Positions 22,822 to 63,760 of a stretch of 64,000 bases of DNA are shown here, in pieces. Position 1 is the stretch's first letter, and every line of letters begins with the position of its first letter. The notes below the pieces were generated by a model that was given only the letters and a program-made list of their open reading frames with translations, made no database searches and was not told the DNA's origin. The position numbers and the translations under genes are program-made. Where the stretch lies: positions 383 to 64,382 of the forward strand of contig JAHJCJ010000067.1 of NCBI GenBank assembly GCA_018812825.1, written 5' to 3'. This stretch comes from Candidatus Omnitrophota bacterium. Lineage in GTDB: Bacteria; Omnitrophota; Gorgyraeia; Gygaellales; Profunditerraquicolaceae.

Positions 22822-22851
22822 GGTTTATACGTAGGTTACTAGAAAACATAT

Positions 22852-25030: not shown

Positions 25031-25060
25031 ATAAGGCAATAGAGAGCACTATCCAAGTAT

Positions 25061-27639: not shown

Positions 27640-27646
27640 TTTAAGC

Positions 27647-28873: not shown

Positions 28874-28881
28874 TGTAGGCT

Positions 28882-31581: not shown

Positions 31582-31586
31582 GCAAA

Positions 31587-41040: not shown

Positions 41041-42324
41041 ATGAAGCTCCAAAGTCGTAGAATAATGCTGTTTGTCTTAATGGGGATATTATTTTTGGGT
41101 ATTCATTTTGTTTTTGCTGAAATAATTACTCTTAAATCAGGCGGGACTGTAGAAGGGGAGATTATTGAGAAGACGGATAAATACGTAAAAATATATTTAC
41201 ATGGAGTGAAGCTTAAGTATTTTATGGATGAGATTAAGGATATTGATGGGCAGAAGACTGTTTCTTCAGACAGTAATCATTTTCCTCCTATTAATGAATC
41301 CGCGTTATTTGAAGCTGTAAAGAATGTTGATATTCTCAAGGTTAAACAGCTTATTAGTGAAGGTGTAGATGTAAACGTAGTAAATTATTCTGGAGCTACT
41401 CCTTTGGTTTGGGCTATAAACGGATGCCATAAGGATATAGTTGAGCTATTACTTTCTAAGGGAGCAAAAGTCAACACTGTAGATTCTGGTGGTATGACAC
41501 CCCTAATGTGGGCGGCACATAGGTGCAATAGGGATATAATAGAATTACTTCTTTCTAAAGGTGCAGATGTTAAAATGAAGGATAAGAATGGTAAAACAGC
41601 TTGGATTTGGTCGGTAGTAAACCGGAATAAAGATGCTAAAGACGTAGTGGAATTTTTTCTTTCTAAAGACGTGGATGTTAATGCAAAAGACAATTCTGGC
41701 GGAACAGTTTTAATGTGGGCAGCTGGCATGGAAAATAAAGAAATCGTTGAGCTACTTCTTTCTAAAGGTGCAGATGTGAATGCAAGAAATAGCCAAGGTT
41801 TAACAGCGTCAATGTATGCTGGAAAGAATGGATTTAATGAAATAGCGGAGCTTCTTAGGTTAAAGGAAGAACAAGTGCAACCTACAAAAAACTCCGGTAA
41901 AGTTGATTATTATGAAACGCAAAAAACGGTTAAGGCAGATGTTTCTTATTTACCTCCTAGTGGTTGGCTGGAAGGCCGAAATGCTCACAATAGTCCAATT
42001 GTTTATTCTCCTGATGGGAAAGCAACCATATTAAATCTAGTAAGAGGACCAGCGAATATAATTACTTTCCAAAATTCCTTATTACTTTTTAGGCAGAAGG
42101 CAAAGCCAATTTCCGAAGAAAAAATTACCTTTTTAGGTAATCCGTGTTATGTTTTTACTAGCGAAGAAACAAATAGTCGCGGAGGCAAGGTAAAAACCAT
42201 GACATATATGTTTCTTGCAAAAAGTAAGCTCTATACGCTTGTTTATGGTGCTGTGCCAGATTACTTCGATACTGATTATCCATCTTTTAAGGATTTCTTA
42301 AATACTTATTGCATAATGGACTAA
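41041..42324 (+). CDS. Secreted ankyrin-repeat protein with an N-terminal 'LKSGGTVEGEIIEKTDKYVK' module
   Basis: Signal peptide; ~5 ANK repeats ('GATPLVWAINGCHKDIVELLLSKGAKVN', 'GMTPLMWAAHRCNRDIIELLLSKGADV', ...); its N-terminal 40 aa is ~50% identical to the N-terminus of the ORF at 1487. Confidence 0.7.
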   Translation: MKLQSRRIMLFVLMGILFLGIHFVFAEIITLKSGGTVEGEIIEKTDKYVKIYLHGVKLKYFMDEIKDIDGQKTVSSDSNHFPPINESALFEAVKNVDILKVKQLISEGVDVNVVNYSGATPLVWAINGCHKDIVELLLSKGAKVNTVDSGGMTPLMWAAHRCNRDIIELLLSKGADVKMKDKNGKTAWIWSVVNRNKDAKDVVEFFLSKDVDVNAKDNSGGTVLMWAAGMENKEIVELLLSKGADVNARNSQGLTASMYAGKNGFNEIAELLRLKEEQVQPTKNSGKVDYYETQKTVKADVSYLPPSGWLEGRNAHNSPIVYSPDGKATILNLVRGPANIITFQNSLLLFRQKAKPISEEKITFLGNPCYVFTSEETNSRGGKVKTMTYMFLAKSKLYTLVYGAVPDYFDTDYPSFKDFLNTYCIMD

Positions 42325-46076: not shown

Positions 46077-47000
46077 TTGAATATGAAGCGTAATTTTATC
46101 TTCTGTGTTATCCTGGGTTTAATTTTTATAGGAGCCTTGGGGTGTGATAAAATAAAAATCCCTGTTTCTAAAAAAACAGAGGTAGCGGAAGTAAAAGCCG
46201 TGCCGGTGATCCCTCAAGTTAAAGGCGTAGTTATCGCTAAGGTAAATAATATTCCCATTGGTTTGGATGATTTTAACCAGGAGGTTGAAATTTATAATGC
46301 CAATGTTCCAGAAGACAGGCCTGAATTAAAAATTACCACCAGGGAACAGAAGATCAATTACCTAAAAAATGAAGTAGTACGCAGAACCTTGCTTTATCAG
46401 AATGCTCTGGATAAAGGTTTGGACCGAAATGAAGATGTTCTAATGGCGTTAGATAAAACTAAGATGCAGCTTTTAGTTATGGAATTAATTAAGCAGGTTT
46501 CGCAGAAGGTCGATGTTTCTTCTAAAGAGATCGAAGATTATTATAATACATACAAGGAGCAGTTAAAGGAACCAGAAGAGCGTCAGATTAGAGAGATAGT
46601 TTCTTCAAGCGAGCAGGAAGCTAGGGATATATTAATCCAGCTTTTACAAGGAGCGGATTTTGCTACTTTAGCTAGGACTAATTCTAAATCCTCTAGCGCT
46701 AAAGATGGAGGGGATTTGGGGTTTGTTAAGCTAGGCGTAAAATCTTCGCAGTTTAATTCTGTGGCTTTTTCTGATTCTCTAGAAGCTGGTAAGATAAGCA
46801 GTATATTCAAAACTCCCGACGGCTACAGCATAATTAAATTGGAAGGCAAACGCGGAGGTAAGCAAAAGCCGTTATCTGAGATGTGGGATGATATTAAGAC
46901 AGGGCTTGTTTATCTAAAACGGCAGCAGGTTATTGACGAGCTGATCGGAAAACTTTCCCGCGACGCAAAAATAGATATTTATGAAGGAGAGATAAAATAA
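46077..47000 (+). CDS. Secreted parvulin-type peptidyl-prolyl isomerase (PrsA/SurA-like)
   Basis: Signal peptide/lipobox-like 'GALGC'; PpiC domain 'ARTNSKSSSAKDGGDLGFVKLG...FKTPDGYSIIKLEGKR'. Confidence 0.6.
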   Translation: MNMKRNFIFCVILGLIFIGALGCDKIKIPVSKKTEVAEVKAVPVIPQVKGVVIAKVNNIPIGLDDFNQEVEIYNANVPEDRPELKITTREQKINYLKNEVVRRTLLYQNALDKGLDRNEDVLMALDKTKMQLLVMELIKQVSQKVDVSSKEIEDYYNTYKEQLKEPEERQIREIVSSSEQEARDILIQLLQGADFATLARTNSKSSSAKDGGDLGFVKLGVKSSQFNSVAFSDSLEAGKISSIFKTPDGYSIIKLEGKRGGKQKPLSEMWDDIKTGLVYLKRQQVIDELIGKLSRDAKIDIYEGEIK

Positions 47001-47911
47001 TGGCCATAGAGAAGCAGAAGCTTATTTTAATAAGCGGCGTAGTTCTAGGCGTGGTAGCAATTCTGATGACTAAAATGTATCTGGATCAACAACAGCAAGT
47101 GGCTCAGGCGCAGGCAAAAAAAACGCTTGCTAAAATGCAGACCAACCAGACTGTAGTTTTAGTAGCTAAACAGGATATCCCTAGCGGTTCAGTTATTGAA
47201 TCCCGTATGATTGATAGTTCAATTGTTCCCAACCAATTTATTCAACCCCAGGCAGTTACTTCTATAGATAGGGTTTTAGGAATGGTTAGCCTGGCTCTAA
47301 TCTCTAAGGGTGAGCAGATAACTCTTTCTAAGCTTTCTAAATCCCGGAAAGAAGACGGCGGAAGCCTGGCAGGGAATACTCCGGCGGGTAAAAGAGCAAT
47401 CTCTATTGCTGTAGATAGTATTGCTTCTGTATCTGGGATGGTCAGGCCAGGAGATTATGTTGATGTGATTGCTACATTGCAAGTCCCTGCGCAAGGGCCG
47501 GATGGGCAGGTATCAACTCAAATGGCCGTGGTTCCTTTGTTCCAGAATGTTTTAGTTTTGGCAGTAGGCCAGGATACTGGTTTTGTTGGTAGGGCAGAAA
47601 GTCGATATGGGGAAAAAGGAGCTTCTTCTGGAGGGTTAATTACTCTGGCTATAGGGCCTCAAGAGGCAAATCTTATTGCTTTTGTACAAGAACAGGGTAA
47701 AATGCGCCTGACTCTGCGTTCTCCGGCGGATGCCAATGTTGAACCAGTGGTTCCAGCCAGCTGGGAAACCTTATTCCAATATATTATGCCTCAACAGAAA
47801 AGCGTTGAGGAAAGCATTGAGGTTAAAGAAGTTCCGGTAGTTGATGCTACTGCTGAGTACGTAGAAGTTTTTCGCGGGCTAAACAAGGAAAAAGTCTCTC
47901 TTTCAAAATAA
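47000..47911 (+). CDS. cpaB: Flp pilus assembly protein CpaB/RcpC
   Basis: N-terminal TM anchor; SAF-like 'VLVAKQDIPSGSVIESRMI' and the typical CpaB C-terminal beta domain; immediately upstream of the secretin. Confidence 0.7.
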   Translation: MAIEKQKLILISGVVLGVVAILMTKMYLDQQQQVAQAQAKKTLAKMQTNQTVVLVAKQDIPSGSVIESRMIDSSIVPNQFIQPQAVTSIDRVLGMVSLALISKGEQITLSKLSKSRKEDGGSLAGNTPAGKRAISIAVDSIASVSGMVRPGDYVDVIATLQVPAQGPDGQVSTQMAVVPLFQNVLVLAVGQDTGFVGRAESRYGEKGASSGGLITLAIGPQEANLIAFVQEQGKMRLTLRSPADANVEPVVPASWETLFQYIMPQQKSVEESIEVKEVPVVDATAEYVEVFRGLNKEKVSLSK

Positions 47912-47921
47912 AAGGAGAAAA

Positions 47922-49511
47922 ATGAGAAAGTTATTTTTTGGCCTATTCTTTATTGCTAGCTTTATAACCTTTCTGCCTTTTAAGGGATATCTTGCAGATG
48001 ATATCGAAGAAGAGATAAAGATCTATATGGGGCAGACTAAAGTTATTTCTGTGAGTACGCCAAAGAGAGTGGCTGTTGGAAATCCTGCGATTGCCGATGT
48101 AGCTAATATTGGCAAAAGCGAACTTACGGTCGTCCCCAAGGCAGTAGGTAATACCACGCTTATTGTTTGGGATAATTTTGGCGAGCAGGCTTATCGTTTA
48201 AGGGTGTTTGCGGAAGATACTGCCGATCTCAAGCGTCGCATAGACCATATGTTAAAGAAATTAAATTTACCAAATGTTTATACTAGCGCAGAAGATGAGG
48301 AAGGAAAAGTTGCGCTTTTAGGCACGGTTAAGCATGCTGCCGATAGAGAAATAATTGCTACCGCCTTAGGAGCGCTTAAAGGTAAAACCGTTGATTTAAT
48401 AGTAGTAAAAGAAGAGGAATCAGTTATAGAGATTGATGTTCAGGTGATTGAAATTAATAGAGGGTCTCAGGATACACTTGGTTTTACCTGGCCAAGTTCA
48501 ATGACCTTAACCGAAGTTGGTTCTCCTGGTATTGCCGGGACAGCTTGGGGTAAAGTATTTCATGTCGTTAATGAATCCCGTGCAGCCTTTACTTTAAAGC
48601 TGGATGCTTTAATAAAGGAAGGTAAAGCGCGCATTCTCTCTCGGCCAAGGGTTTCTTGCCAGAGTGGTAAAGAAGCTAAGCTTCTTGTTGGAGGAGAGGT
48701 TCCTGTTTTAAGCGGTTCAGTTACCCCGGGTACGAGTGGTGAAACCTCAGTTGGCGCAACTACCGGAGCTTCAGTAGAATATAAAGAGTATGGGATTATT
48801 TTAAATGTTAAGCCTTCGATTGAGGATTCAGGGCGTATTCATCTTAATCTTGACGTATCCGTTAGTGAGGTAGGGGATGTGGTGAGTACTTCTTATGCCC
48901 TTGCATATAAAATGACTAAACGTACAGCTACAACCGAGCTTTTTCTCGATGATGGCCAGACTATGGCTATTGGAGGTTTAATTAAGAAAAAGTCTTCCGA
49001 GGAGTTAACAAGGGTTCCTTGGCTTTCGGATATTCCGGTGTTGGGTTTATTCTTTAGGCAGAGAACTACTTCTCGGGGTTGGAATTCCGATCTTAGCAAG
49101 GCCGATGATACAGAATTATTTATTACTCTTACTCCGCGCGTAATTACTCAAAAGGAGCCGTTGAGAGAATTAAAACCATCAATTTCCGGCACGCCTACGC
49201 TTAACGATGACGATATAAAGGATCCTGTTGTAAGGTACGCTAAAATTATTCAAAGGAAGATTCTCGATAGCCTTACTTATCCTATAGCGGCTAAAGAAGC
49301 AGGTTTTCAGGGTAAGGTAAAATTAAGCCTCAAGCTTTCTGCGCAGGGAGACCTGCTGAATTCAAAAGTAAAGGAACCTTCCAGTTATCGTTTGCTCGAC
49401 GAGAACGCAATAAGGACAGCGCAGAAGATTGTCCCATATCCTCCGTTTCCTCCTGCAATAAAAGAAGCTCAGCTTTGGGTAGATGTCCCTATAATATATC
49501 AATTAGAATAA
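47922..49511 (+). CDS. cpaC: Tad secretin CpaC/RcpA with a fused C-terminal TonB_C domain
   Basis: CpaC N-terminal pilus-formation domain, secretin core ('GGEVPVLSG...EYKEYGIILNVKPSI...MAIGGLIKKK'), then 'YAKIIQRKILDSLTYPIAAKEAGFQGKVKLSLKLSAQGDLLNSKVKEPSSYRLLDENAIRTAQKIVPYPPFPP', which matches the TonB C-terminal domain. Confidence 0.75.
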   Translation: MRKLFFGLFFIASFITFLPFKGYLADDIEEEIKIYMGQTKVISVSTPKRVAVGNPAIADVANIGKSELTVVPKAVGNTTLIVWDNFGEQAYRLRVFAEDTADLKRRIDHMLKKLNLPNVYTSAEDEEGKVALLGTVKHAADREIIATALGALKGKTVDLIVVKEEESVIEIDVQVIEINRGSQDTLGFTWPSSMTLTEVGSPGIAGTAWGKVFHVVNESRAAFTLKLDALIKEGKARILSRPRVSCQSGKEAKLLVGGEVPVLSGSVTPGTSGETSVGATTGASVEYKEYGIILNVKPSIEDSGRIHLNLDVSVSEVGDVVSTSYALAYKMTKRTATTELFLDDGQTMAIGGLIKKKSSEELTRVPWLSDIPVLGLFFRQRTTSRGWNSDLSKADDTELFITLTPRVITQKEPLRELKPSISGTPTLNDDDIKDPVVRYAKIIQRKILDSLTYPIAAKEAGFQGKVKLSLKLSAQGDLLNSKVKEPSSYRLLDENAIRTAQKIVPYPPFPPAIKEAQLWVDVPIIYQLE

Positions 49512-51714: not shown

Positions 51715-52062
51715 ATGAAGATAAAAATAATTAATCTAACCAAGAATCAAGTTTTGGCCGAGGATGTTTTATTGTCAACCAGTTTCTTAAAGAGGCTAAA
51801 AGGGTTATTAGGTTATGAATCTTTTGAAGAAAATCATGCAATGATACTGCGGCCTGCTAATTCCGTGCACACTTTCTTTATGCGTTTTCCGATTGACGTG
51901 CTGTTTGTTGATAGGAATAATATAGTGGTAAAAGCGGTTAGTAATATGGGGCCTTTTAAAATTACCAGAATTTATTTTAAATCCGCTTTTGTTATTGAGT
52001 TGCACGCCGGAATGCTCAACGCAACTCAAACTGCAGAAGGTGACTACTTGCAAATCCAGTAA
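51715..52062 (+). CDS. DUF192-family protein
   Basis: 'EENHAMILRPANSVHTFFMRFPIDVLFVDRNNIVV' matches the DUF192/COG1430 pattern; small, in the Tad locus. Confidence 0.5.
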   Translation: MKIKIINLTKNQVLAEDVLLSTSFLKRLKGLLGYESFEENHAMILRPANSVHTFFMRFPIDVLFVDRNNIVVKAVSNMGPFKITRIYFKSAFVIELHAGMLNATQTAEGDYLQIQ

Positions 52063-52099: not shown

Positions 52100-52597
52100 C
52101 TATCGCTCGAATACATCAAATTGATTTATCAGATGGTCTTGTTTTATCCCGAATCTGCTGTTCCAACTGCACCAACGGTATTCCGCAGGTGATTTTACTA
52201 AATTTGCTCTTGCCGGATTAAATTCTACGTAGGTGATGCAATCTAAAAGGTATTTATCTTCTTGTACCAGCATGTCTTTGTATCTTCCTTGCCATAGGTG
52301 ACCCGCCTTATTATATTTTTCATTAAACCAAATTGTGTATGTTTGATTTAATCCTTGCATAATTTTTTGCAAGTCTTTTCCCAGAAGTACTTTTATTATT
52401 AGATGAATATGATTTGGCATTAAACAATAGCCGTATAATTCAAACCGATATTTATGTTTATAGTGCTTAAGCAAATCTAAATATCTTAGAAAATCGCATT
52501 CATCGATAAAAGTTATTTGTTTTTGATTTCCTCTAGCTATGACATGGTGTATCGAATTATCTATGATCAACCTACTCGGTCTTGGCATATTTATCAC
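52100..52597 (-). mobile_element. IS200/IS605-like Y1 (HUH) transposase of the REP-associated (RAYT) type
   Basis: 'HHVIARGN', HUH motif 'CLMPNHIHLII', 'WQGRYKDMLV' and 'YVEFNPARANLV' are typical of TnpA(REP)/IS200 transposases; flanked by inverted REP-like hairpins. Confidence 0.75.
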
Positions 52598-52779: not shown

Positions 52780-54984
52780 GTGGGCGTAGTGCATAAATTA
52801 AAACCAGAAGTAATTAAGTTTATCCTCGATAATAAACAAGCTACCCCGCATTTAAGTTGCCGTAGCCTAACTGTTTTGTTGCTGGAAAAACTTCAAGTTG
52901 AAGTCTCTAAATCAAGTATAAATGCCATTCTTAAGCAAAACAACCTAAGCATGCCTGTGGGGAGGCGCCAGAAGCCAAAGAAAAAGAAGTTTAATATGCC
53001 TATTCTGCCGGTTATTGAAAGCATTAAAACTATTACGCCAGAGGAAGAGCTGCAAAATCCCGTTTTGAAAGACGAGCCCAACATTCAAGAAAAGTCCAAG
53101 CATGAAATTATTGAAGAACAGGGTGTCGAAAAGATTAACTTAGAAGAGAAACGTATCCAGGAGGCAGAGGGTTGGGCAGAAAAATTATTGGAAAAGGAAC
53201 GCGATCGGCTTGAGCAGGAAAGGTTGGCCCGGGAGGAGCAGGAAAAAAAAGCCGAAAAGGATACAATTAGAGAGGATTTGCTGAGGTTGCAGAAATTGCA
53301 AGAGGAGGAAGATGCCAGAAATAAAGAGTTAGCCAGGCTTAAGTTGGAGGAAGAGGCCAGGTTTATAGAAGAACAGGAAAGGCTGGCTCAGGAAGAGGCG
53401 TTGCATAAAGTTGAAGAGGAAAGGATAAAAGAAGAACAGCTGAGGTTGCAAAAATTGCAAGAGGAGCAATCCGCTAAACAGAAAGAGGCAGACAGGGTTA
53501 AACTTGAAGAAGAAACCAGGTTAAAGGAGGAGCAAGAAAAACTGGCTAGGGAGGTGGAATTAAAGGCGGAGCATGAGCGTTGGGCGCGATTATCCGAGGA
53601 AGAGAGCAAAAGAAAAGAAGCGCTTATGGCTTCTCAGGCTATCAAGGAAGAGGCTAAGATCGAGCCTAGCTCCGGGTCGTCGCTGCCAAGGGGGTGCACA
53701 GGAGCAGTCTTATTAAAAGCAATTGATCAGTTAATAGGGGGGAGCATTCAATTAAGCGAAGCTATTCAGAGAAGGTTAGGTTACCCGAAAGAAGAGGTGG
53801 AGGCCCTAACTCAGACTTTAATATTCCAGGATATTGTCGGTAATGAGCCGGGTGCCTTGAGTTCTATAATGCGCAATGAAATAAGCGCAGATAAGTTGTC
53901 GGGTTATTTTACTCAACTTCAAGAGCTAAAAACTATGAAGCTTGATTTATCGCGCCTTTCGGCAAATATATTTACTGAAAGCCGGGGGATTAAAATGCAT
54001 TTTATCGATGGAAGCATAGTTTATCTTGACGCCCAAATGCATACGGTGTGGCCTACTCCTTATATGCCTCATGACTTTTCCGCGACAGTAATGAGCGTAA
54101 AGGATTGTATAAACCGGTATTTCTTTAAAGATGGTAATCTCGTTTTATTTATGGCACCCGGATACGATATCCCCACAAAAGAATTCTTTACGTTGCTGCT
54201 TAATTTTAATTCAAAACATGAAACCGCAGACAACCTTATTTTATATGGCAATAAACTTGATGAGTTAGAGAATATCGTTTTAAACCCTGAAGATAACCAT
54301 AATCTTATATTTGCTTTATGGCCTTGGCAATTTACCGCTTACCGGAAGGTAAAAAGAATTGGCGAATTCAGTGCGCAGCGTATTGATTGTATGAACAAGG
54401 ATTTTTATTTGGCAGAGGTCGAAATTGAGCTGGTACAGCCGACGAGCATGCAGTCATTCTCGCTAAAAGGCTGTGCTATTAAATTAAGTTTAGCGGAAAA
54501 AATACGGCTGGTAATTTTAGGTACTGATGAGGCTAGGAGCCTGGTTTCCCTGGCCAATGATTATCTTTGCCGCTGGCCTAACCTTGATGAAGGCCTTCAT
54601 GATTTTAACCGTAAAATTGAATTGTTCAGCTGTACCGGAGAATCGCAGCAAGTTTTTAACTATGAAGACCTGCCTATCAATAAAAGCGAGCCCGTTGATT
54701 TAAAATCTGTTTTTTCAGGCTACTCTGAGGCTTTAGACGCCTACCTTAGATGGCATTTTATGCCGTCTGGGTATGAGAAAATAGAGTTTAGCCTTACCAA
54801 AGCACGTTTTTACAGCCAGAAGGCGCAATTAAAGCAAGATAAAGACAAGATACTCTATTTTTTTACCGTTGCTCATGATTATGCTTATGCAAAAGACCTG
54901 GAATATATCTGCCGCAGGCTTAATGAAAGGGATATCCGCGTTGATGATGGGCAAAGAATTTGTTTTGAAAGCGGTTTCAAATAA
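52780..54984 (+). CDS. 734-aa protein: N-terminal HTH (transposase/Psq-like), long Glu/Lys/Arg-rich coiled coil with a tandem ~54-aa repeat, and an uncharacterised C-terminal domain
   Basis: 'KLKPEVIKFILDNKQATPHLSCRSLTVLLLEKLQVEVSKSSINAIL' is HTH-like; 'LRLQKLQEEEDARNKELARLKLEEEARFIEEQERLAQEE' is repeated as 'LRLQKLQEEQSAKQKEADRVKLEEETRLKEEQEKLAREV'. Confidence 0.35.
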   Translation: MGVVHKLKPEVIKFILDNKQATPHLSCRSLTVLLLEKLQVEVSKSSINAILKQNNLSMPVGRRQKPKKKKFNMPILPVIESIKTITPEEELQNPVLKDEPNIQEKSKHEIIEEQGVEKINLEEKRIQEAEGWAEKLLEKERDRLEQERLAREEQEKKAEKDTIREDLLRLQKLQEEEDARNKELARLKLEEEARFIEEQERLAQEEALHKVEEERIKEEQLRLQKLQEEQSAKQKEADRVKLEEETRLKEEQEKLAREVELKAEHERWARLSEEESKRKEALMASQAIKEEAKIEPSSGSSLPRGCTGAVLLKAIDQLIGGSIQLSEAIQRRLGYPKEEVEALTQTLIFQDIVGNEPGALSSIMRNEISADKLSGYFTQLQELKTMKLDLSRLSANIFTESRGIKMHFIDGSIVYLDAQMHTVWPTPYMPHDFSATVMSVKDCINRYFFKDGNLVLFMAPGYDIPTKEFFTLLLNFNSKHETADNLILYGNKLDELENIVLNPEDNHNLIFALWPWQFTAYRKVKRIGEFSAQRIDCMNKDFYLAEVEIELVQPTSMQSFSLKGCAIKLSLAEKIRLVILGTDEARSLVSLANDYLCRWPNLDEGLHDFNRKIELFSCTGESQQVFNYEDLPINKSEPVDLKSVFSGYSEALDAYLRWHFMPSGYEKIEFSLTKARFYSQKAQLKQDKDKILYFFTVAHDYAYAKDLEYICRRLNERDIRVDDGQRICFESGFK

Positions 54985-55586: not shown

Positions 55587-55599
55587 GGAGGTGAAGAGA

Positions 55600-55926
55600 A
55601 TGTTAAGGATATTAAGAAAGGGCCAGAGTACGGCAGAGTACGCCATTGTTATCGGTTTAGTTATTGCCGCGGCTGTTGCTATGCAGATTTATGTAAAGCG
55701 TAGTTTGCAAGGTAAGGTTAAAGATGCGGTGGACTATAATGATCCTGCGGCAAGCGGTATTTTAGGTACAACCACGCAGTATGAGCCTTATTACTCTACT
55801 TCAGCCATGAATGCTACTCGTTCATCTACTGATACGGAAGATACCGCAACCGGTGGTTCGGTCGCCAGGACTACTGTAGATTCTTCATCTAGGACCGGTA
55901 CTCAAAATATTTTAGCAGTGCAGTAG
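55600..55926 (+). CDS. Flp-family pilin with a Thr/Ser-rich C-terminal extension (108 aa)
   Basis: RBS 'aaggaggtgaagaga' then ATG; 'KGQSTAEYAIVIGLVIAAAVAM'; C-terminus rich in T/S. Confidence 0.65.
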   Translation: MLRILRKGQSTAEYAIVIGLVIAAAVAMQIYVKRSLQGKVKDAVDYNDPAASGILGTTTQYEPYYSTSAMNATRSSTDTEDTATGGSVARTTVDSSSRTGTQNILAVQ

Positions 55927-55969
55927 TATCAATAATTATTTTGAAGAAATTTTTAAGGAGGTGAAAGAA

Positions 55970-56275
55970 ATGTTTATGCGTAAAATACGCGGGCAGAGCA
56001 CGTTGGAATATGTTATTTTAGTGGGTTTTGTAGTGGCAGCGTTAATTGCCATGGGTATTTATATGAAACGAGGTTATGAGGGAAGGATTAAGGAATCTAC
56101 CGATCAGATTGGCCAGCAGTATTCTGCCGGAAATACTACTTCAAGCTATACGACTATATCTAATGTCGCTCAGTCTGAAACTGTAAGTTCTGGAGGGGTT
56201 ACGCTAACCACTATTACTCAGAATCAGCAAGATAAAACCGGTAGCGAGAGCGTAGCAGCTTTGAGTGCGCAATAA
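55970..56275 (+). CDS. Flp-family pilin with an extended C-terminus (101 aa)
   Basis: RBS 'aaggaggtgaaagaa'; 'RGQSTLEYVILVGFVVAALIAM'. Confidence 0.65.
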   Translation: MFMRKIRGQSTLEYVILVGFVVAALIAMGIYMKRGYEGRIKESTDQIGQQYSAGNTTSSYTTISNVAQSETVSSGGVTLTTITQNQQDKTGSESVAALSAQ

Positions 56276-56289
56276 TTAAGGTAATTAAA

Positions 56290-56844
56290 ATGCGTCGGGC
56301 GCAGACCAATTTGGAGTATTCTTATTTAATCGGCATAGTAGCAGTGGCTATTATCGCCATATTAGCATATATGAGCCGCGGGTTCCAGGGGAACCTGCGC
56401 ACGCTTTCTGAGCAGGTCGAAGCTGGTGCTTATGCTCCAGGAAACACCACGGTAAACAATGCAGAGACCAAGCGTACGCAATCTACGGTGGTTTCCACGA
56501 GTACCACCACAACTACCTATGGAAACGGGCAGGCGGAAAACGAAGAGATGCATACCAATAGTGAAGAGCAGAAATCATTACGGGCTGAATTGGTGGATCT
56601 TAGAAAAGCCGCGGAAACGGCAACCGGTAGTGCGCTGGAGATTCTAAATCAGCAGATAAGTGATAAGACCAAAGACTTGCAAGATTTGATCGATGAATAT
56701 AAAGCTTTATCGGAAGTATGGGAAGCGCGGACAATTACTCCAAACAGTACTAGTGTTACAAGCAGCACAGTTGAAACCGGTACTCAGACTGTGGCTAAAC
56801 AGGTAAATGAAGCGCTGGGGAATCTATCAAATGACAGCTGGTAA
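56290..56844 (+). CDS. Flp/TadE-like pilin with a Thr-rich linker and a coiled-coil C-terminal domain (184 aa)
   Basis: 'RAQTNLEYSYLIGIVAVAIIAILAYM' then 'TSTTTTTYG' and heptad-like 'LRAELVDLRKAAE...LQDLIDEYKAL'. Confidence 0.55.
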   Translation: MRRAQTNLEYSYLIGIVAVAIIAILAYMSRGFQGNLRTLSEQVEAGAYAPGNTTVNNAETKRTQSTVVSTSTTTTTYGNGQAENEEMHTNSEEQKSLRAELVDLRKAAETATGSALEILNQQISDKTKDLQDLIDEYKALSEVWEARTITPNSTSVTSSTVETGTQTVAKQVNEALGNLSNDSW

Positions 56845-57172
56845 AGCAGGTAAGGTATCTTTTAAAAAAGGCCAGAATCTTACGGAAGCCGTGGTAATTA
56901 TCGGCATTGTGGGGTTAGTTTTTGTTGGAATGCAGGTTTATGTTAAGCGCGGTGTACAGGGTAAAGTTAAAGATTTAACAGATAATATGATAGGTACGGA
57001 GCAGGAAGCTTATCAGGAAGATACTTCAGGGCTTGAAATAAATGAATCTGCTTCTACGTTTACTTCCAGCTCGACGATAGCGTCGAATGATTCTCTGGGA
57101 GGGGCAAAGAGTTTAATTGCTAACGAAGCTACAACAGTTACCTATAGTTCCGAGTCCACAGATGCTTATTAG
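56831..57172 (+). CDS. Flp-family pilin-like protein (113 aa)
   Basis: 'KKGQNLTEAVVIIGIVGLVFVGMQVYV'; ATG at 56831 in frame with the track ORF 56807. Confidence 0.5.
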   Translation: MTAGKAGKVSFKKGQNLTEAVVIIGIVGLVFVGMQVYVKRGVQGKVKDLTDNMIGTEQEAYQEDTSGLEINESASTFTSSSTIASNDSLGGAKSLIANEATTVTYSSESTDAY

Positions 57173-57227: not shown

Positions 57228-57857
57228 ATGTTAAGTAATAAAAACGCCCAGGCAGCCACAGAATTCGCGATCATAGTCTCATTGGTAATTGTGGCTTTTG
57301 CTTTTTTGATTAATTATAGCGTGAAGCTTAATAACCAGCAATCTTGCATTCAGCAAGCCTTCCGCTTGGCATTAAGTGAAGCAAGAGAGGCGGATAACTC
57401 TGCTTCTTATACTAAAGTTGTTTTTAGGCGCATGCCGAATGTTTCCAGCCCGATGGAATTAGGGCAATTGCAGTCTGTTAGCAGTAGTTCCAATGTACTG
57501 TGGGCAGATGGCAAGAGCAGGAATGAGGATGAAACGCCAAAGGATGGCGTATCAAAATACCAGCTTAATGAAGCTGAGGCAATAGATATACCCAAGCCCG
57601 AGTATGAATATTTGGAGGGTCAAACCAAGGTAAGCATGAATACCTTTACCAATACCGTAGACTCTACCACTACTTTTACAAAACAAGAATCTGCCTCTGG
57701 AGATATCACTACTGCTAAGACACTTAATGCTACGGATACCTTGTCCGCGAGCGTTGACATTGACGGCACAGCATATCCTTTTGAGCATTATTTGGGCGCT
57801 AATGGAAAGTATTATGACCAATCCACAAGTTTGAGCAGGTCAAGGAGTATGGAATAA
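57228..57857 (+). CDS. TadE-like pseudopilin (209 aa)
   Basis: 'NKNAQAATEFAIIVSLVIVAFAFL' is the TadE/TadG-type N-terminus. Confidence 0.55.
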   Translation: MLSNKNAQAATEFAIIVSLVIVAFAFLINYSVKLNNQQSCIQQAFRLALSEAREADNSASYTKVVFRRMPNVSSPMELGQLQSVSSSSNVLWADGKSRNEDETPKDGVSKYQLNEAEAIDIPKPEYEYLEGQTKVSMNTFTNTVDSTTTFTKQESASGDITTAKTLNATDTLSASVDIDGTAYPFEHYLGANGKYYDQSTSLSRSRSME

Positions 57858-58735
57858 TGCATAAAGCACAAGCAACGCTGGAATCTACATTATTTTTTAT
57901 TATAATAGCAGCATTATCTCTGGGTTTGATTAGTTTATGGAAGGGCTCCAGCGATACTATTGTTAGTCGCCAGAAAGATTTTAATGCCAGCCGCGTAGCT
58001 GCCGGCTCAGTTCCGCCAGGGACTTCTTCCTCGGGAAACATACCCCTTGAGTTTACGTATAATACTATAGATGCTTACCTGGATTATATTGACGGATCAG
58101 CTTATGATCTAATGTCATTAGAACAGATAAATGATAATCTGGAAAATATAAATCAGGCCATAGCGGGTACCCAGGCAAATATTGCTCAACTGACGCAGAT
58201 AAGAGATACCTGGAAGAGTTTTTTTGATGAGGCTCAAGCGCAAGAGGTAAACGCGCAACAGCAAATCGATAATTTGCAGGCCCAGCTGGATGAAAAACAA
58301 AGAGAGCTGGATAGAGGTGAATGTGATTGGTGGGATGATGACGGTTGCGGAAGCCTTATTGCAGAAATAAATTCGCTCCAGGAACAGATAGAGATGGCTA
58401 TAAACGGATATTATACCATAGAGACTGGGTGGGGTGATGATTGGGAGATTACTTATGATTACTCTAATGCGCAATGGATGTCTGCATTAGGTACGAGGGA
58501 GGCATGGTCAAATGATTACTGGATGTATCAACAGTATGGGGTTTCACCAGGAAATAATAAATATGGGCTATACAACGATTACACTCCCGGGTTGCTTGAT
58601 TGGCAGTCAAGAAAGGATGTTGCCCTATCGCAACTGAATGATGCTCAGTCTAATTTAGATGTTATGGAAAATACTCTGGATAAACTTACAGCTATGCAGG
58701 ATAAGCTTCTGGAAGCCCAGGAAAAAAAATCTTAA
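57857..58735 (+). CDS. TadE/TadF-like pseudopilin with a Gln-rich coiled-coil region (292 aa)
   Basis: 'HKAQATLESTLFFIIIAALSLGLISLW', then 'QINDNLENINQAIAGTQANIAQLTQIRD...QQQIDNLQAQLDEKQRELD'. Confidence 0.5.
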   Translation: MHKAQATLESTLFFIIIAALSLGLISLWKGSSDTIVSRQKDFNASRVAAGSVPPGTSSSGNIPLEFTYNTIDAYLDYIDGSAYDLMSLEQINDNLENINQAIAGTQANIAQLTQIRDTWKSFFDEAQAQEVNAQQQIDNLQAQLDEKQRELDRGECDWWDDDGCGSLIAEINSLQEQIEMAINGYYTIETGWGDDWEITYDYSNAQWMSALGTREAWSNDYWMYQQYGVSPGNNKYGLYNDYTPGLLDWQSRKDVALSQLNDAQSNLDVMENTLDKLTAMQDKLLEAQEKKS

Positions 58736-58829
58736 ATCCTAATAAGGAGGTAACCTGTTTTTCTCCTGGTTCGCTAAAAATAAACAATTTAAGAAAAAGA
58801 GTAGTTTATCCGGCCAGGTCGCTCCTCTT

Positions 58830-60212
58830 TTGCTGGTAGTATTGGTTATTTTGTTAGTTGCTGCGATTGCAACGATTAATATCGGCAGGGTTTCTTTAGA
58901 TAAAACCTGTTCGGCTAATGCCGCGGATGCCGGTTCTCTTGCCGCGGCTTCTGTGTGGGCTTCTGCTTTTAATGTGCTCACCGAAATAAACAAAGATCAG
59001 ATAAAAACCTGGTTTGACCTGAATTATTACACTTACGGGCAGCTTTATTTTGAGGCAGATAGTTATATAAATGAGGGGATAAATTATGCGCTTGCTGCCA
59101 GCGCAGCTGCAGTAGCATCTCTTGCAGTTGCGAGCGTGCCGTTTCTTTGTTATGAGATTTGGTATGAAGGTTTAGCCGCTGCTGCTCTTGATGGGACTGC
59201 TGCCTACCTGTGTTTTGAGGCATCTCAATCAGTTGCAGCCTTTTCTATTACTATTCAATTTATGCAATCGCTCACGGATTCTTTTTATGAGCAGCAATGG
59301 GAAAACTATTGTGACGCCAGGGAATATATGGAGGATGCATATACTAATGCCTACGAAACAGGATTAAACTATGCCTTTTCCAATAGTTGTATATCCTCTA
59401 AGCTTTCAGATGCGCAGAATGATGCCTTTAGCGCCTGGATGGATGGAAAAGGCCCTTCTACTGATGGGACCTATAGCTGGGAGGACAAGCTTTCTCAGCC
59501 GCATACAGTTACCGCTACCTTGGATTTACCAGATATAACCTCCTATGAGCTGCAGCATACCGAAAGCAGCTATTCGCAAATCAGTGGTTTGTTAGACGGG
59601 CTTATCAGCCGTGCGCAGACAATCTCCGGAGTATTAAACAGCACAGGTGTTTCATTAGGGGCTACTGCAGCTTTGTTTCTTGTTACCTTTGGAATGAGTG
59701 TCACAACTTACATCTTTTGGTGTTGTTGTGATATCCCTTGTGCTTATTGCGTTTGTTGTGCGTGTTGTGCGGCGTATGTGGCATGGTGTGGTGCAACTAT
59801 AGCTGTCTATCAAGGCGTGTATTTGGATCAAAGTTATATAGTTTCTGTGCTTGCAGCTTTTATTGCATTTGTAGGAGCGATGTCCCTGTATTCGCTAAAG
59901 TCTGATAATGATGCGGCATTCGCAGGCTGGGCTCCTGATCCTGATAACATATATAGCAGCACAAGTTGTGCGGATGCTGAAGACCTGATGATTGTTCAGA
60001 TCAGCGAAGTAATCTTACCTAACGACGTAAATTGGCCTGCCAGTGACTGGACTACTGTTTGCTCTACAACCCAGCAGCATCCCGGCACAAGTTCTGGTAT
60101 TATGCCGACGAGCTATCCAATTATAAATAGCAGCAGCAGGGCTAAATTTGATGGCGGTGATGTGGGGGCATTTGAGGATACTTATGATCCCAGCATAGTG
60201 TGGGTAAACTAA
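58830..60212 (+). CDS. TadG-like large pseudopilin/tip-associated protein with an internal Cys cluster (460 aa)
   Basis: N-terminal hydrophobic 'LVVLVILLVAAIATINIGRVSL'; internal 'FWCCCDIPCAYCVCCACCAAYVAWCG' (11 Cys in ~25 aa); the start codon is non-ATG in the track. Confidence 0.5.
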   Translation: MLVVLVILLVAAIATINIGRVSLDKTCSANAADAGSLAAASVWASAFNVLTEINKDQIKTWFDLNYYTYGQLYFEADSYINEGINYALAASAAAVASLAVASVPFLCYEIWYEGLAAAALDGTAAYLCFEASQSVAAFSITIQFMQSLTDSFYEQQWENYCDAREYMEDAYTNAYETGLNYAFSNSCISSKLSDAQNDAFSAWMDGKGPSTDGTYSWEDKLSQPHTVTATLDLPDITSYELQHTESSYSQISGLLDGLISRAQTISGVLNSTGVSLGATAALFLVTFGMSVTTYIFWCCCDIPCAYCVCCACCAAYVAWCGATIAVYQGVYLDQSYIVSVLAAFIAFVGAMSLYSLKSDNDAAFAGWAPDPDNIYSSTSCADAEDLMIVQISEVILPNDVNWPASDWTTVCSTTQQHPGTSSGIMPTSYPIINSSSRAKFDGGDVGAFEDTYDPSIVWVN

Positions 60213-60285: not shown

Positions 60286-61083
60286 ATGTTTAGAAACTTG
60301 AGTAGAATAATCTTGTGCACAATCTTATTTTTCATCTGCGTTTCATTTAACCGTTTAATATTCAGCGCTGAGCCAGACATACCTTTGCCGGAAGGTGCTT
60401 TAAAAACCATGGAAAAGAGCATGGATGTCGGGCCTTCTAAAAGCACCATTCAATTTTATGAAACCTCTCTTAATAATAATAAGATAGCCTCTTTTTATAG
60501 AAAAGAGATGTTGCGTCTTGGTTGGCGTGAACAGAGAACCGGGTTTTTCTTAAAAGATAACTATCTGGCGGTTATCGTCTCTAACCCGCGTAAGAGTAAG
60601 GGCGAGAAGACGCAATTTTCTATCACCATAAGCAGGATTCCCGGTAAAGAAGAAATATTAGCCGGACGCAAGGATACGCCGGATAAGTTAAGCTTTATGC
60701 CGGTTTATCCTAAATCAGCGCAGGTCTTTCTCTGGGATATGCCCACTGGAGTCTCTGCTTCATATGAGACCGACAGCAGTATTAAAGAACTGGTTTTCTT
60801 TTATAAATCTGGTATGCTTAATTATGGCTGGAGCCTTGATAAAGAGGCGCCGATCACAACAGAGACAGCTGATTGTCCTGAGTGCCAGAAGGCCAAGCAG
60901 AATTTGCCCAAAGACAGCAGCTTGCCTGATATGAAAGTTACCTCTAGCAGGGGCAATTTGTTATTCAGTAGGCAAAACGGAGAACGCTGCACGATAAAGT
61001 TGTATCAAAACATTAGTGATATACAAGAAGTAAATAAAACAACAATTTTGGTTACCTACAATGCGAATAAAAAGATTAATTAA
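60286..61083 (+). CDS. Secreted hypothetical protein in the Tad locus
   Basis: Signal peptide 'MFRNLSRIILCTILFFICVSFNRLIFSA'; preceded by a GC-rich hairpin leader that resembles the pstS leader. Confidence 0.4.
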   Translation: MFRNLSRIILCTILFFICVSFNRLIFSAEPDIPLPEGALKTMEKSMDVGPSKSTIQFYETSLNNNKIASFYRKEMLRLGWREQRTGFFLKDNYLAVIVSNPRKSKGEKTQFSITISRIPGKEEILAGRKDTPDKLSFMPVYPKSAQVFLWDMPTGVSASYETDSSIKELVFFYKSGMLNYGWSLDKEAPITTETADCPECQKAKQNLPKDSSLPDMKVTSSRGNLLFSRQNGERCTIKLYQNISDIQEVNKTTILVTYNANKKIN

Positions 61084-61270: not shown

Positions 61271-62116
61271 ATGATCTTATTGCTTGGCATTGTGATTTTG
61301 TGCTCAATTATTTTGTTATCTTTGAGTATCTTACCTTTTTTCATGCAAAAAATACAATTCTGGCAGCAGAAGCAGGAGGTTAAAGTTGCTAAAGAAATGG
61401 ATAAGATGTTTTATGATAAGAGCCCCAAGATCATTGTCACGCTTTATTATATCCTTCCTATTATTTTTGGACTTAGCGGGATAATTTTCCTACACTCGCC
61501 TTTTTTTATGATTCTCGGGGCGCTTATCGGAGTGACCGTCCCAAACCTTATTCTTAAGATGCGCTTTAAACGCAGGATCCAGAAATTCGATAACCAGCTT
61601 TTAGATGCTATTAATATGCTCACCAGTTGTTTAAAAGGCGGTTTAAGCTTGCTACAGGGGATTGAAGTATTAGTAGAAGAGATGCCTGCGCCAATTAGCC
61701 AGGAGTTAGGTTTGGTGGTTAGGGAGAATAAGATGGGCATTTCTTTGGAGGAGAGCCTTGTCCGGTTGAATAAGAGGATGAATCTTGAGGAGCTTGGCTT
61801 GATGGTTAACGCACTCTTAATTGCCCGCGAGACAGGCGGTGAGTTAACGAAGGTATTTAGCCGCTTGAGTGTGACTATAAGGGATAATCATAAACTAAAA
61901 GAAAATATCAAGACGCTTACTTTACAGGGAAGAATGCAAGGTATAATTATGTCATTTTTGCCGATTGTATTTGTTGTCTGGGTCCTTTCGGTTGATAAAC
62001 ATCATTTTGATATTATGATGAACAATGATTTAGGTAGGATGCTTTTGGTGGGAGCGGTAGTGTTGCAGATTTGCGGCATGCTTCTTATCAAGATGTTCAG
62101 CGTAATTAAAATATAA
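61271..62116 (+). CDS. tadB: Tad pilus inner-membrane platform protein TadB (T2SS-F domain)
   Basis: N-terminal TM, cytoplasmic T2SSF-like domain 'QLLDAINMLTSCLKGGLSLLQGIE', C-terminal TM helices. Confidence 0.75.
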   Translation: MILLLGIVILCSIILLSLSILPFFMQKIQFWQQKQEVKVAKEMDKMFYDKSPKIIVTLYYILPIIFGLSGIIFLHSPFFMILGALIGVTVPNLILKMRFKRRIQKFDNQLLDAINMLTSCLKGGLSLLQGIEVLVEEMPAPISQELGLVVRENKMGISLEESLVRLNKRMNLEELGLMVNALLIARETGGELTKVFSRLSVTIRDNHKLKENIKTLTLQGRMQGIIMSFLPIVFVVWVLSVDKHHFDIMMNNDLGRMLLVGAVVLQICGMLLIKMFSVIKI

Positions 62117-62117
62117 T

Positions 62118-62981
62118 ATGGATATTTTTATCTACCTTCTAATTATTTCTGCGGTTGTTTTAATTTTCTGGGCAATAAGTTCTCCCCGCCAGTCCGCAAT
62201 TATGCACTTAAGGGAAAACAAGCTCATGGCGGAGAAAGTTAATAAGCCGCCCTTTGATTTATCCAGGATCCTTCCCACGCGGGATATCCTTGAAAGGACC
62301 GGGCTATTAGTTAAAATCAAGAGTAAGGTTGATGCCGCGCATGTGCATATTTCTCCGGTGGGATTTTTTAATTTAAAGATAATTATTATATTCTTTTTTG
62401 CAGTTTTTAGCATTATCGCTACCGGAAAAATTAACCCCATTTTTATTCTCATTTCTTTCATAATAGGATATATTATTCCGGAAATTTATTTAAAACAAAA
62501 GCTTGCCAAACGTAAAAACCTAATCTCACGCCGGCTTCCGGAAACAGTGGATCTGCTCGGGCTTTGCATTGAGGCCGGCCTGGATTTTGTAAGCGCGGTT
62601 AACTGGGTGATTGCCAAAACCCCGGGTACGGCGATGACCGAGGAATTGGCATTTGTGGCTGAAGAGATTAAATGGGGAAAACCGCGTATTCAGGCTTTAA
62701 AAGATATGTCGCGTAGGCTGGATATTCCCGAAATGACCTCGTTTGTGCAGACCATTATTCAGGCAGATCGTATGGGGACTCCGGTTGCCGAGGCTTTTAC
62801 TATAATTTCTGAAGATGCCCGTGCTCAAAGGTTCCACCGCGGGCAAAGGATCGCCTTACAGGCGCCTATCAAAATACTCCTTCCCCTTATATTCTTCATT
62901 ATGCCCGTAATCGGTATTGTAATTGGAGGGCCAATCTTGCTTCAATTTATGCAGGGTGGCCTTATCAGCGGCTTCAAATAA
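62118..62981 (+). CDS. tadC: Tad pilus inner-membrane platform protein TadC (T2SS-F domain)
   Basis: 'RLPETVDLLGLCIEAGLDFVSAVNWV' T2SSF domain flanked by TM helices; directly follows tadB. Confidence 0.75.
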   Translation: MDIFIYLLIISAVVLIFWAISSPRQSAIMHLRENKLMAEKVNKPPFDLSRILPTRDILERTGLLVKIKSKVDAAHVHISPVGFFNLKIIIIFFFAVFSIIATGKINPIFILISFIIGYIIPEIYLKQKLAKRKNLISRRLPETVDLLGLCIEAGLDFVSAVNWVIAKTPGTAMTEELAFVAEEIKWGKPRIQALKDMSRRLDIPEMTSFVQTIIQADRMGTPVAEAFTIISEDARAQRFHRGQRIALQAPIKILLPLIFFIMPVIGIVIGGPILLQFMQGGLISGFK

Positions 62982-63449
62982 TTGGGCGTGAATCCTATTT
63001 AATGAGATTAAGCATTTTTTGGGCTTACTCGGAAGCTTTATAGCGGCATTACCCCGGTAACTTTATTAATATATTCTTTGAAGTGCCCATCTAAAGAAAT
63101 CCACCTTTTTGAGCAATATAGCATAGTTGTCCTCATTCATTTTTTCCAATCAATTCTTTAATGAATTAGATGTAATCAGCCAAGGCTACTAAACCATGGT
63201 CAAGGTAGTAGCTGGCTATCGATTCTGGATGTCCTATGATTGTAACTTGACCATTGGTAAGGCTCGGGAATCTTTACTAAGCCTGCCCTTACAGGTTACT
63301 GAAGCAATAGATAATATATCTAGAGTTTCAGGTTTTCCCAAGCAAGATTTATAGCCCCAGTGGAATGGGGCCTATCCGCGTCCGTGAAGAATATGTCGAT
63401 TACGTAAAGTAAGCAAGCAGCGTATCAAATCGCTTTTACTCTTTGCCTA

Positions 63450-63760
63450 CCTCAAACGCTATTAAAAGATACAACCTCATGCTACAGGCTAAAAATTAGA
63501 GTTATATTTTTATGACCTAGAGTGTTCGCGCAACCAAACCGTAATAATTCTCAAAGAGTTTAAAAAACTATCTGACCAAAATGCAATCTTAGAGTGCAAT
63601 ATACATTATTTACGCTCTATTCCCGGCATAGGTTTTATCATTGCCATAACCATTCTGGCAAGCATTGGAGATATAGAAGAGTTGCATGGTCTCAAGAAAT
63701 GGCTGCCTTTATGGGATTAGCGCCCTCTGAATACTCAACTTGATAACAGATCGCAAGAAG
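63450..63760 (+). pseudogene. Decayed IS110-family transposase C-terminal fragment (frameshifted)
   Basis: Translations 'LRSIPGIGFIIAITILASIGDIEEL' and, in another frame, 'MAAFMGLAPSEYS' match the conserved IS110 'IPGIG..TA..LLAEIGD' and 'AYAGLAPSEYQSG' motifs; no intact ORF in the last 1 kb. Confidence 0.5.

Follow-up and report, generated by a model that had tools for sequence, protein, structure and literature searches.

A Tad secretin of Omnitrophota carrying a C-terminal TonB_C domain

A stretch of 64,000 nucleotides from a Candidatus Omnitrophota bacterium (contig JAHJCJ010000067.1, positions 383 to 64,382; hereafter the window) encodes a Tad-type secretin that continues, within one reading frame, into a C-terminal TonB_C domain. 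Both the identity of this protein as a Tad secretin and its architecture, written here as secretin::TonB_C, are directly observed and close to certain. Judged by its sequence features, the protein is the outer-membrane secretin of the Tad (type IVc, Flp) pilus machine of Omnitrophota, and its gene is part of a complete Tad operon that also encodes CpaB, a TadZ::CpaF fusion, Flp pilins, a TadG-like protein, TadB and TadC. The gene had been described in an initial annotation, made from the letters without database searches, as a CpaC/RcpA-type Tad secretin with a TonB_C extension. Its coordinates, domain content and approximate domain length were correct when compared with the open reading frame (ORF) and with Pfam.

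Domain architecture and family membership

The window protein consists of a probable signal peptide, two periplasmic domains, the Secretin pore domain, a linker and the TonB_C domain (Table 1). Coverage of nearly the entire Secretin profile means that the secretin core is complete. The first periplasmic domain, T2SS-T3SS_pil_N, is the N-terminal domain typical of CpaC/RcpA, and the N1-like domain that follows it (residues ~100-165) has no Pfam model of its own. The linker is 25 amino acids (aa) long in the window protein (TQKEPLRELKPSISGTPTLNDDDIK, read from the translation). The C-terminal domain matches TonB_C PF03544 with 56.9 bits (gathering cutoff 24.6; E 2.9e-15, profile 3-79 of 79) and the NCBIfam model tonB_Cterm (TIGR01352) with 49 bits (cutoff 27.1), well above what chance would give. 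The search with hidden Markov models (HMMs) that had been proposed as a check thus gave significant matches for Secretin, T2SS-T3SS_pil_N and TonB_C alike, and the boundaries of Secretin (229-408) and TonB_C (451-528) agree with the proposal of a complete secretin core followed by a C-terminal TonB_C domain. The motif string from which that proposal was made is present (YPIAAKEAGFQGKVKLSLKLSAQGDLLNSKVKEPSSYRLLDENAIRTAQKIVPYPPFPP), although the spacing towards its end had been miscounted and reads A...A....P.PP, not A..A......P.PP.

The fold of the C-terminal domain was examined in an AlphaFold2 (AF2) model of the secretin monomer, which was built on 47 homologues and has a predicted template modelling score (pTM) of 0.42. 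Here residues 434-529 have a predicted local distance difference test (pLDDT) score of 78-91 and adopt the topology of TonB C-terminal domains, helix-helix-strand-strand-helix-strand. In a Foldseek comparison of the model with the PDB, secretins ranked first (8odn_A at E 3.1e-9) and were followed by solved TonB C-terminal domains, namely neisserial TonB from its complex with TbpA (9dc4_T; template modelling (TM) score 0.77, root-mean-square deviation 1.4 Å over 81 columns), Helicobacter pylori TonB (6sly and 5lw8, TM 0.71), FusB (7zc8_B, TM 0.66) and HasB (2m2k, TM 0.43). Structure prediction of the C-terminus, also suggested at the outset, therefore returned the TonB fold, with Foldseek TM scores of 0.66-0.77. 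A PDB sequence search with the TonB_C domain alone gave weak matches only (E 0.014), and the fold search was needed for confirmation. At the other end of the protein, the model has a helix at residues 2-17 and low-confidence residues at 16-28, in the region of the signal peptide; the signal-peptide and lipoprotein calls in the window were made by eye from the sequence.

The assignment to the Tad secretins is supported by several lines of evidence. A complete Secretin pore domain (PF00263) is present, as is the N-terminal domain PF13629, and there are no matches to Secretin_N, STN or AMIN. The operon is of the tad/cpa type, with CpaB/RcpC, TadZ, TadA/CpaF, TadB/C and Flp pilins. The best PDB sequence matches of the whole protein are 8jvb (1.7e-31) and RcpA 8odn (1.4e-24), the latter providing the similarity to a characterised RcpA, and the solved RcpA/CpaC proteins (P. 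aeruginosa 8odn; A. caldus 8jvb/9wfd) share with the window protein the T2SS-T3SS_pil_N and Secretin domains and the operon partners. Models of other secretin families fit poorly: GspD TIGR02517 reaches 144.6 bits against a cutoff of 351.35, is aligned only to the C-terminal pore and is not accompanied by Secretin_N; PilQ TIGR02515 reaches 115 bits against a cutoff of 284.35, with no AMIN match; and the protein falls far below the cutoffs of the NCBIfam MshL and type III secretion system (T3SS) secretin models. The one departure from the Tad secretins is the absence of a short S-domain tail, whose place is taken by the folded TonB_C domain; this tail is a P. aeruginosa trait that may not define the family.

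By comparison, the window protein has little in common with TonB proteins beyond the C-terminal TonB_C domain itself, where the fold, the motifs YP and G..G.V and the terminal beta strand are common to TonB, HasB, FusB and the secretin. There is no inner-membrane anchor, the N-terminus being a signal-peptide-like segment followed by secretin periplasmic domains, and the Pro-rich spacer that spans the periplasm in TonB is absent as well, although some relatives have long E/P/K-rich linkers. The Pfam scan of the window took in its ORFs of at least 100 aa other than nine located within or across longer ones, and no exbB-exbD genes or receptor genes were detected among the ORFs scanned. Three of the four features that define TonB proteins are therefore missing, and the NCBI name of the identical database entry (P0001, 100% identity), 'TonB family protein [Candidatus Omnitrophica bacterium]', is misleading. 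As far as its domains allow one to judge, the secretin::TonB_C protein is not an energy transducer, having neither inner-membrane anchor nor spacer nor ExbBD-interacting region, and 'coupling' in the energy-transducing sense, one of the roles initially considered, is unlikely. TonB hangs from the inner membrane, whereas the TonB_C domain of the window protein hangs from an outer-membrane protein, so that any contact with a TonB box would be reversed in polarity and not energised.

Conservation, spread and origin of the fusion

Related loci were collected in an orthologue scan that covered one genome per GTDB species and yielded 65 loci, all from Omnitrophota or from metagenome-assembled genomes labelled 'uncultured Planctomycetales/-ia' or 'Marinamargulisbacteria'; taxonomic reach is given here by record titles, and the proteins under the latter two labels are 33-89% identical to Omnitrophota proteins. 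When HMMs built for the secretin half and the TonB_C half were run against all ORFs of these loci, the two halves were found in one reading frame in every gene uncut by a contig end (60/60), and no separate TonB_C gene was found in the 10-kb flanks of the 65 loci. A frameshift does occur in one locus (L063), where it lies within the secretin part and not at the junction. Beyond these loci, the three Pfam domains recur in proteins of about equal length in over 110 clusters, at 58-90% identity. A HMMER search of 1.84 billion cluster representatives (50% identity) gave 290 matches at E up to 1e-30, and both domains are present in 143 of the best 150 of these, at identities down to 29%; of the seven without a TonB_C match, most are too short for complete genes. 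Taxon names are almost absent from the records of the distant members; one cluster member is labelled 'Hydrothermarchaeota archaeon' and is probably a mis-binned contig.

The possibility that a secretin gene and an independent TonB gene were brought together by a frameshift or a chimeric contig has virtually no chance of being correct. Such an artefact would be suggested only by the unusual architecture and by the NCBI label 'TonB family protein', and it is ruled out by the single ORF seen in 60/60 complete orthologues from independent assemblies, by the wide distribution of the fusion among clusters and distant representatives, by purifying selection on the TonB_C domain (see below) and by the DNA of the junction (49130-49260), in which neither a homopolymer run nor any other trace of a frameshift is seen. 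The homologous loci, which the initial annotation had named as the place to look for an assembly frameshift, contain one gene and not two. The gene itself starts 10 nt past the upstream stop codon and ends 1 nt before the next gene, and is thus set in a tightly packed operon.

In an alignment of 47 sequences, the mean pairwise identity of the TonB_C domain (68.5%) is close to that of the secretin core (70%) and of the N-terminal domains (66-67%), and the linker stands at 34%. Invariant residues of the TonB_C domain in this alignment are Y453, P454, A457, G461, G464, L468, G476, S487, L492 and P505-F509, the last of these forming a P505-Y-P-P-F509 turn, and residues W519, P523, I524, Y526, Q527 and L528 of the last beta strand are at least 90% conserved. 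In TonB the TonB box pairs with this last strand. When the domain is aligned pairwise with the C-terminal domain of E. coli TonB, the YP and G..G.V motifs fall into register. Such conservation indicates that the TonB_C domain of the window secretin is under purifying selection.

The linker, by comparison, varies from 16 to 355 aa among relatives (median 42; the longest in P0131) and is a low-complexity segment in which E, P, K, S and A are abundant. The TonB_C domain lies at most four residues (0-4) from the C-terminus in most relatives. Two tandem TonB_C domains are noted in ten representatives (P0159, P0160, P0164, P0168, P0189, P0190, P0210, P0261, P0266 and P0267, which were listed as having tandem domains and/or very long acidic linkers), with Pfam confirming two TonB_C stretches in P0160 and P0267; P0266 and P0267 exceed 1000 aa. 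The isoelectric point (pI) of the domain spans 4.05-10.14 across the family (median 5.25), and a conserved basic charge, looked for as a signature of peptidoglycan or membrane binding, is not present. Because the linker is disordered and variable in length, and the domain is terminal and sometimes tandem, the TonB_C domain would best be viewed as a folded binding module on a flexible tether, in which selection appears to act on the fold and its edge strand and not on the distance from the pore or on charge.

With regard to origin, GspD-type secretins of Omnitrophota are without TonB_C, so that the domain is particular to the Tad secretin. The profile score falls sharply, from 436 to 306 bits, where fused relatives give way to unfused ones, a drop from which a single origin of the Tad secretin fusion seems likely. 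Neighbour-joining trees of fused and unfused secretins, which are crude and without support values, differ with the columns used: in an outgroup-rooted tree on all columns the smallest clade with all 38 fused sequences also holds 24 unfused ones, and on 136 core columns 34 of the 38 form one pure clade, three stand beside unfused CpaC, and P0318 stands apart from all other fused sequences. P0318 (L069 7565-9430; Logan assembly ERR15087771) is a GspD-type secretin with N0, two Secretin_N and Secretin domains that ends in a TonB_2 domain (residues 532-615 of 621), and it is encoded in a type II secretion system (T2SS) operon with GspF, GspG, GspJ, GspK, a PilM_2 protein, an ExeA-like AAA protein and GspC. 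Its domain content and setting suggest that a fusion of secretin and TonB-like domain arose independently in this case.

Possible roles of the tethered TonB_C domain

Secretins assemble as 13-15-mers in which the C-terminus emerges on the periplasmic side, outside the barrel and beneath the outer membrane. The initial annotation had placed the TonB_C domain in the periplasm at the channel, as would be expected from this topology, and by the same architecture an assembled channel would carry a crown of ~13-14 tethered TonB_C domains. The only activity well established for the TonB_C fold is strand capture through beta augmentation, examples being the pairs TonB/TonB box and TolA/TolB, and for this reason passive docking or anchoring is the favoured role. 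Each domain would bind a short strand exposed by a partner in the periplasm or outer membrane, and the secretin would in this way be anchored, positioned or helped to assemble where TadD and RcpB are lacking, the tether and TonB_C domain taking over the position of the pilotin-binding tail of classical RcpA. Taken as a whole, the explanation of a Tad secretin with a tethered TonB_C domain as a passive docking or anchoring module is considered evenly balanced between right and wrong; that docking is directed towards a protein partner, which is argued by analogy, is put forward tentatively and at somewhat less than even chances.

Several known systems provide a frame for this explanation. In P. 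aeruginosa the C-terminal S-domain of RcpA is a random coil whose last four residues insert in a groove of TadD, a tetratricopeptide repeat (TPR) lipoprotein that serves as the pilotin, and without contact between RcpA and TadD the secretin fails to assemble (PMC10499894). Where classical RcpA has this short TadD-binding tail, the window protein has a linker and a folded TonB_C domain, and no TadD or RcpB was found in the window. Similarly, a C-terminal extension past the secretin domain governs targeting and assembly in the pairs GspD-AspS/PulS and InvG-InvH, but the S-domains of the T2SS and T3SS are short helical or coil peptides bound by a lipoprotein, whereas in the window protein the extension folds into a binding domain of its own. 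Functional analogues of the proposed module may be seen in type IVa pili, where the AMIN domains of PilQ, often present as tandem repeats, and the LysM ring of TsaP are accessory modules that tie a secretin to another layer of the envelope; they differ in that AMIN domains are N-terminal, TsaP is a separate protein, and the ligand is established as peptidoglycan, the TonB_C domain of the window protein being of a different fold. TonB_C-like domains outside nutrient transport are also found in GltG/GltJ of the Agl-Glt gliding machinery and in domain III of TolA, and in the Myxococcus Glt machine they act on long disordered linkers as periplasmic connectors (PMC11761067). GltG/GltJ and TolA are anchored in the inner membrane and coupled to a proton motor, whereas the secretin fusion is anchored in the outer membrane.

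A search for a partner or ligand was directed at the window and the related loci. No TPR/TadD-like lipoprotein or RcpB, and no ExbB, ExbD, second TonB or TonB-dependent receptor, was detected among the scanned ORFs of the 64-kb window; the ORF at 60286-61083 was among those scanned and has no Pfam match. The lack of a TadD-like lipoprotein or RcpB fits a system in which the usual pilotin partner is missing, and to this extent the earlier remark on a 'missing pilotin/RcpB or TadD' holds for the scanned ORFs, the rest of the genome lying outside the search. Among the neighbouring proteins, all Omnitrophota CpaB end, within the last ~25 residues and after a variable Pro/Glu-rich spacer, in the motif (T/Y)(V/I)E(V/I)(Y/F/L)RG.(N/K)KE..(V/M).L.K (in the window …TVEIYRG.NKE…). 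This tail was considered as a TonB-box-like ligand that would explain the fusion. CpaB of Devosia, where the secretin is unfused, has the related motif VRLIRFGKEQ, and the motif is therefore not specific to the fusion; the tail stays a candidate only, and from its sequence it may be a general secretin-docking strand of CpaB/RcpC. The PpiC lipoprotein encoded upstream is a further candidate, as dedicated chaperone, pilotin or TonB_C ligand.

A number of observations speak against docking to a protein partner. None of the neighbouring genes has been identified as encoding a partner of TonB_C, and the sole conserved strand-like motif found in a neighbouring periplasmic protein is the CpaB tail, which unfused systems share. 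A gene for TadD or for a different pilotin could lie in a part of the genome beyond the visible 64 kb. The AF2 monomer model, at its pTM, is uninformative on how the domains pack in the multimer, and tandem domain duplication is also typical of polymer binders such as peptidoglycan modules.

This last point leads to the alternative that the tethered TonB_C domain binds the wall itself, in the manner of PilQ AMIN or TsaP LysM, and fixes the secretin against the force of pilus retraction during attachment or predation. The flexible, variable tether and the tandem copies do resemble tandem AMIN, LysM and SPOR modules, Pfam finds no other wall-binding domain in the window secretin or its neighbours, and the C-terminus of TonB is said in older literature to bind peptidoglycan, a claim that the literature search did not retrieve. 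Peptidoglycan binding is, however, not established for the TonB_C fold, linkers at the short end of the range (16-30 aa) may not reach the wall, the features used by TonB to bind the TonB box are kept, and the charge of the domain is unconserved, a variation that favours specific protein contact over generic binding of an anionic polymer. Anchoring to peptidoglycan is accordingly rated as rather unlikely, both as a mode of binding and as a means of bearing retraction force. TonB C-terminal domains can also form strand-swapped dimers, and the domains of the crown might bind each other or the periplasmic rings of the secretin, forming an outer collar that stabilises the multimer and acts as a built-in pilotin or S-domain clamp. 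The TonB_C domain does occupy the S-domain position (cf. PMC10499894), it is strongly conserved, and TadD was not found in the window scan; but a fixed collar is hard to reconcile with linkers of up to 355 aa and tandem duplications, and the AF2 monomer has no confident interdomain packing, which together leave self-association, with or without a clamping role, improbable.

A link to TonB-dependent transport is more doubtful still. Here the secretin's TonB_C domains would bind the TonB boxes of receptors, either bringing nutrient importers together at the pilus or contact site or competing with TonB. All canonical sequence features of TonB_C are present, and Tad loci of Omnitrophota have been implicated in predation and nutrient capture (PMC10066038; 10.1101/2023.11.21.568195), but the window scan gave no receptor, ExbB or ExbD, the flanks of the related loci have no second TonB_C gene, a 2026 survey reports no canonical TonB-dependent receptor or sus architecture beside these loci, and without an energised anchor the domain could only bind and not transduce. 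Both the binding and the clustering or competition are thus very improbable. A more speculative idea, also thought improbable, is that the TonB_C crown represents TonB-box coupling of reversed polarity, in which the channel would take hold of a strand in a Tad component that is anchored in the inner membrane or linked to a motor, or in a lipoprotein chaperone such as PpiC, which is always encoded alongside. If this were true, it would imply secretin targeting, alignment or force bearing independent of a pilotin in Omnitrophota, or alternatively a secretin linked to a proton-driven motor, which might explain the gating of a Tad machine used in predation; in that case P0318 would stand for a general class of self-docking secretins that has so far gone unrecognised.

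The Omnitrophota locus has been described as a Tad complex (PMC10066038) and as a conserved 'type II secretion-like' locus that lies upstream of giant genes and contains gspD, rcpC and a Rotamase_2 isomerase gene (10.1101/2023.11.21.568195). A term search shows that the word TonB is absent from both texts. West-Roberts et al. 2023 noted the Rotamase_2 gene of this locus. A 2026 preprint mentions 'TonB-domain' genes flanking giant genes, beside secretion and pilus genes, without further identification, and no secretin-TonB_C fusion is described in the full-text literature searched, which did not cover many subscription journals. The sequences are not new, as the architecture is contained in precomputed Pfam annotations; the recognition and interpretation of the fusion appear to be new.

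Secretins normally rely on separate pilotins or on wall-binding accessory domains for placement in the outer membrane, and a phylum-wide, strongly conserved TonB_C domain on the Tad secretin points to a different solution of the placement problem than in model proteobacteria. Omnitrophota are ultra-small and probably predatory or parasitic bacteria, and the fusion sits in a machine that they are thought to use for host attachment, adjoining their giant genes. With this fusion the known uses of the TonB_C fold extend past energy transduction, and the domain, soluble and of 96 aa, offers a testable handle for ligand fishing. The misleading label may also affect surveys of Omnitrophota that count TonB genes or miss Tad secretins.

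The Tad locus and other genes of the window

The genes around the secretin are listed in Table 1. The block PpiC - CpaB - secretin::TonB_C - TadZ::CpaF - DUF192 is syntenic in essentially all related loci (~60), and its synteny extends to a clade at only 33-37% identity. Within this block the PpiC gene invariably stands two genes upstream of the secretin (57 related loci), preceded directly by the gene of the 80-aa membrane protein in 27 loci (57-93% identity), and CpaB, the gene of which starts in an overlap with the PpiC stop codon, is conserved in 61 loci. The TadZ::CpaF fusion is full-length in 53/62 loci, and in outgroup loci (Devosia, Gemmataceae) only its ATPase part matches.

Table 1. 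Features of the secretin gene and of the Tad locus in the window
Feature	Position	Strand	Details
Small membrane protein, 80 aa	45795-46037	+	Two predicted hydrophobic helices; no Pfam family
PpiC/SurA-like parvulin, probable lipoprotein	46077..47000	+	Pfam Rotamase, Rotamase_3, Rotamase_2; lipobox …IGALGC|D read from sequence
CpaB/RcpC, periplasmic secretin partner	47000..47911	+	Pfam RcpC E 2.9e-24 and SAF; PDB RcpC 9gzr E 7.6e-9
Shine-Dalgarno sequence AAGGAG	47912..47917	+	Strong; 4 nt 5' of the secretin ATG; read from sequence
secretin::TonB_C gene	47922..49511	+	ATG to TAA; 529 aa plus stop codon
Probable Sec signal peptide	47922..47996	+	Residues 1 to ~25; MRK then hydrophobic stretch; read from sequence
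T2SS-T3SS_pil_N domain	48009..48206	+	Residues 30-95; PF13629, E 9.3e-16; pLDDT 84-90
Second periplasmic alpha/beta (N1-like) domain	48219..48416	+	Residues ~100-165; AF2 helices 100-114 and 139-148, strands 119-124 and 129-136
Secretin pore domain	48606..49145	+	Residues 229-408; PF00263, E 6e-41, profile 1-168 of 169
Disordered linker	49146..49220	+	Residues 409-433; pLDDT <50 at 410-429
TonB C-terminal domain and preceding helix	49221..49508	+	Residues 434-529; Pfam core 451-528; ends at last residue
TadZ/CpaE-like ParA domain::CpaF/TadA ATPase, 719 aa	49513..51672	+	AAA_31, CbiA, ParA at 2-240; T2SSE at 365-644
DUF192 (COG1430)	51715-52062	+	No obvious signal peptide; directly downstream of the ATPase in 45 loci
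IS200-like Y1 transposase	52100-52597	-	PF01797, E 8.4e-16; between DUF192 and the 734-aa gene
734-aa protein	52780-54984	+	No Pfam match; kept after DUF192 in 36 loci
Four Flp-like pilin genes	55591..57172	+	N-termini G/QSTxEY then hydrophobic helix; conserved in 30-34 loci
Pseudopilin-like genes and TadG-like protein	57228-60212	+	Includes the TadG-like gene of the next row
TadG-like pseudopilin	58830..60212	+	Pfam Tad PF13400, E 7.5e-5
TadB and TadC platform proteins	61271..62981	+	Pfam T2SSF, E 1e-18 and 2.8e-14

Downstream of the DUF192 gene, the gap to the gene of the 734-aa protein is ~70-100 bp in most related loci, and the IS200-like element of the window thus looks like a recent insertion into the Tad operon; locus L003 has a similar gap of 720 bp. 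The 734-aa protein consists of a short N-terminal segment with a lysine-rich end, a long E/K-rich repetitive region that is possibly a coiled coil, and a C-terminal region of ~400 aa without a match. After tadC no ORF of at least 100 aa is found up to the end of the window (62982-64000), and the contig ends ~440 bp further on, so that a giant gene 3' of tadC, of the kind reported beside Tad loci in other Omnitrophota, would not be visible here.

Other gene clusters are located upstream of the Tad locus. The region 17691-26497 (+) has two sulfotransferase genes, an arginine-deiminase-fold protein, a fusion of a cytidylyltransferase-like domain with adenosine 5'-phosphosulfate kinase, and two pairs of a methyltransferase with a B12-binding radical S-adenosylmethionine protein, and is possibly a sulfation or modification cluster. 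At 26713-33746 (+) the genes of a MoxR AAA_3 ATPase and a DUF58 protein are followed by those of two larger proteins, one with TgpA_N and Big_2 (899 aa) and one with Big_2 (719 aa), and together they make up a MoxR-DUF58-type cluster with large surface-protein-like genes. Finally, a 427-aa ankyrin-repeat protein (Ank_2, E 8e-57) is encoded at 41041-42324 (+); ankyrin-repeat proteins are unusual in bacteria and are often effector-like in host-associated lineages.

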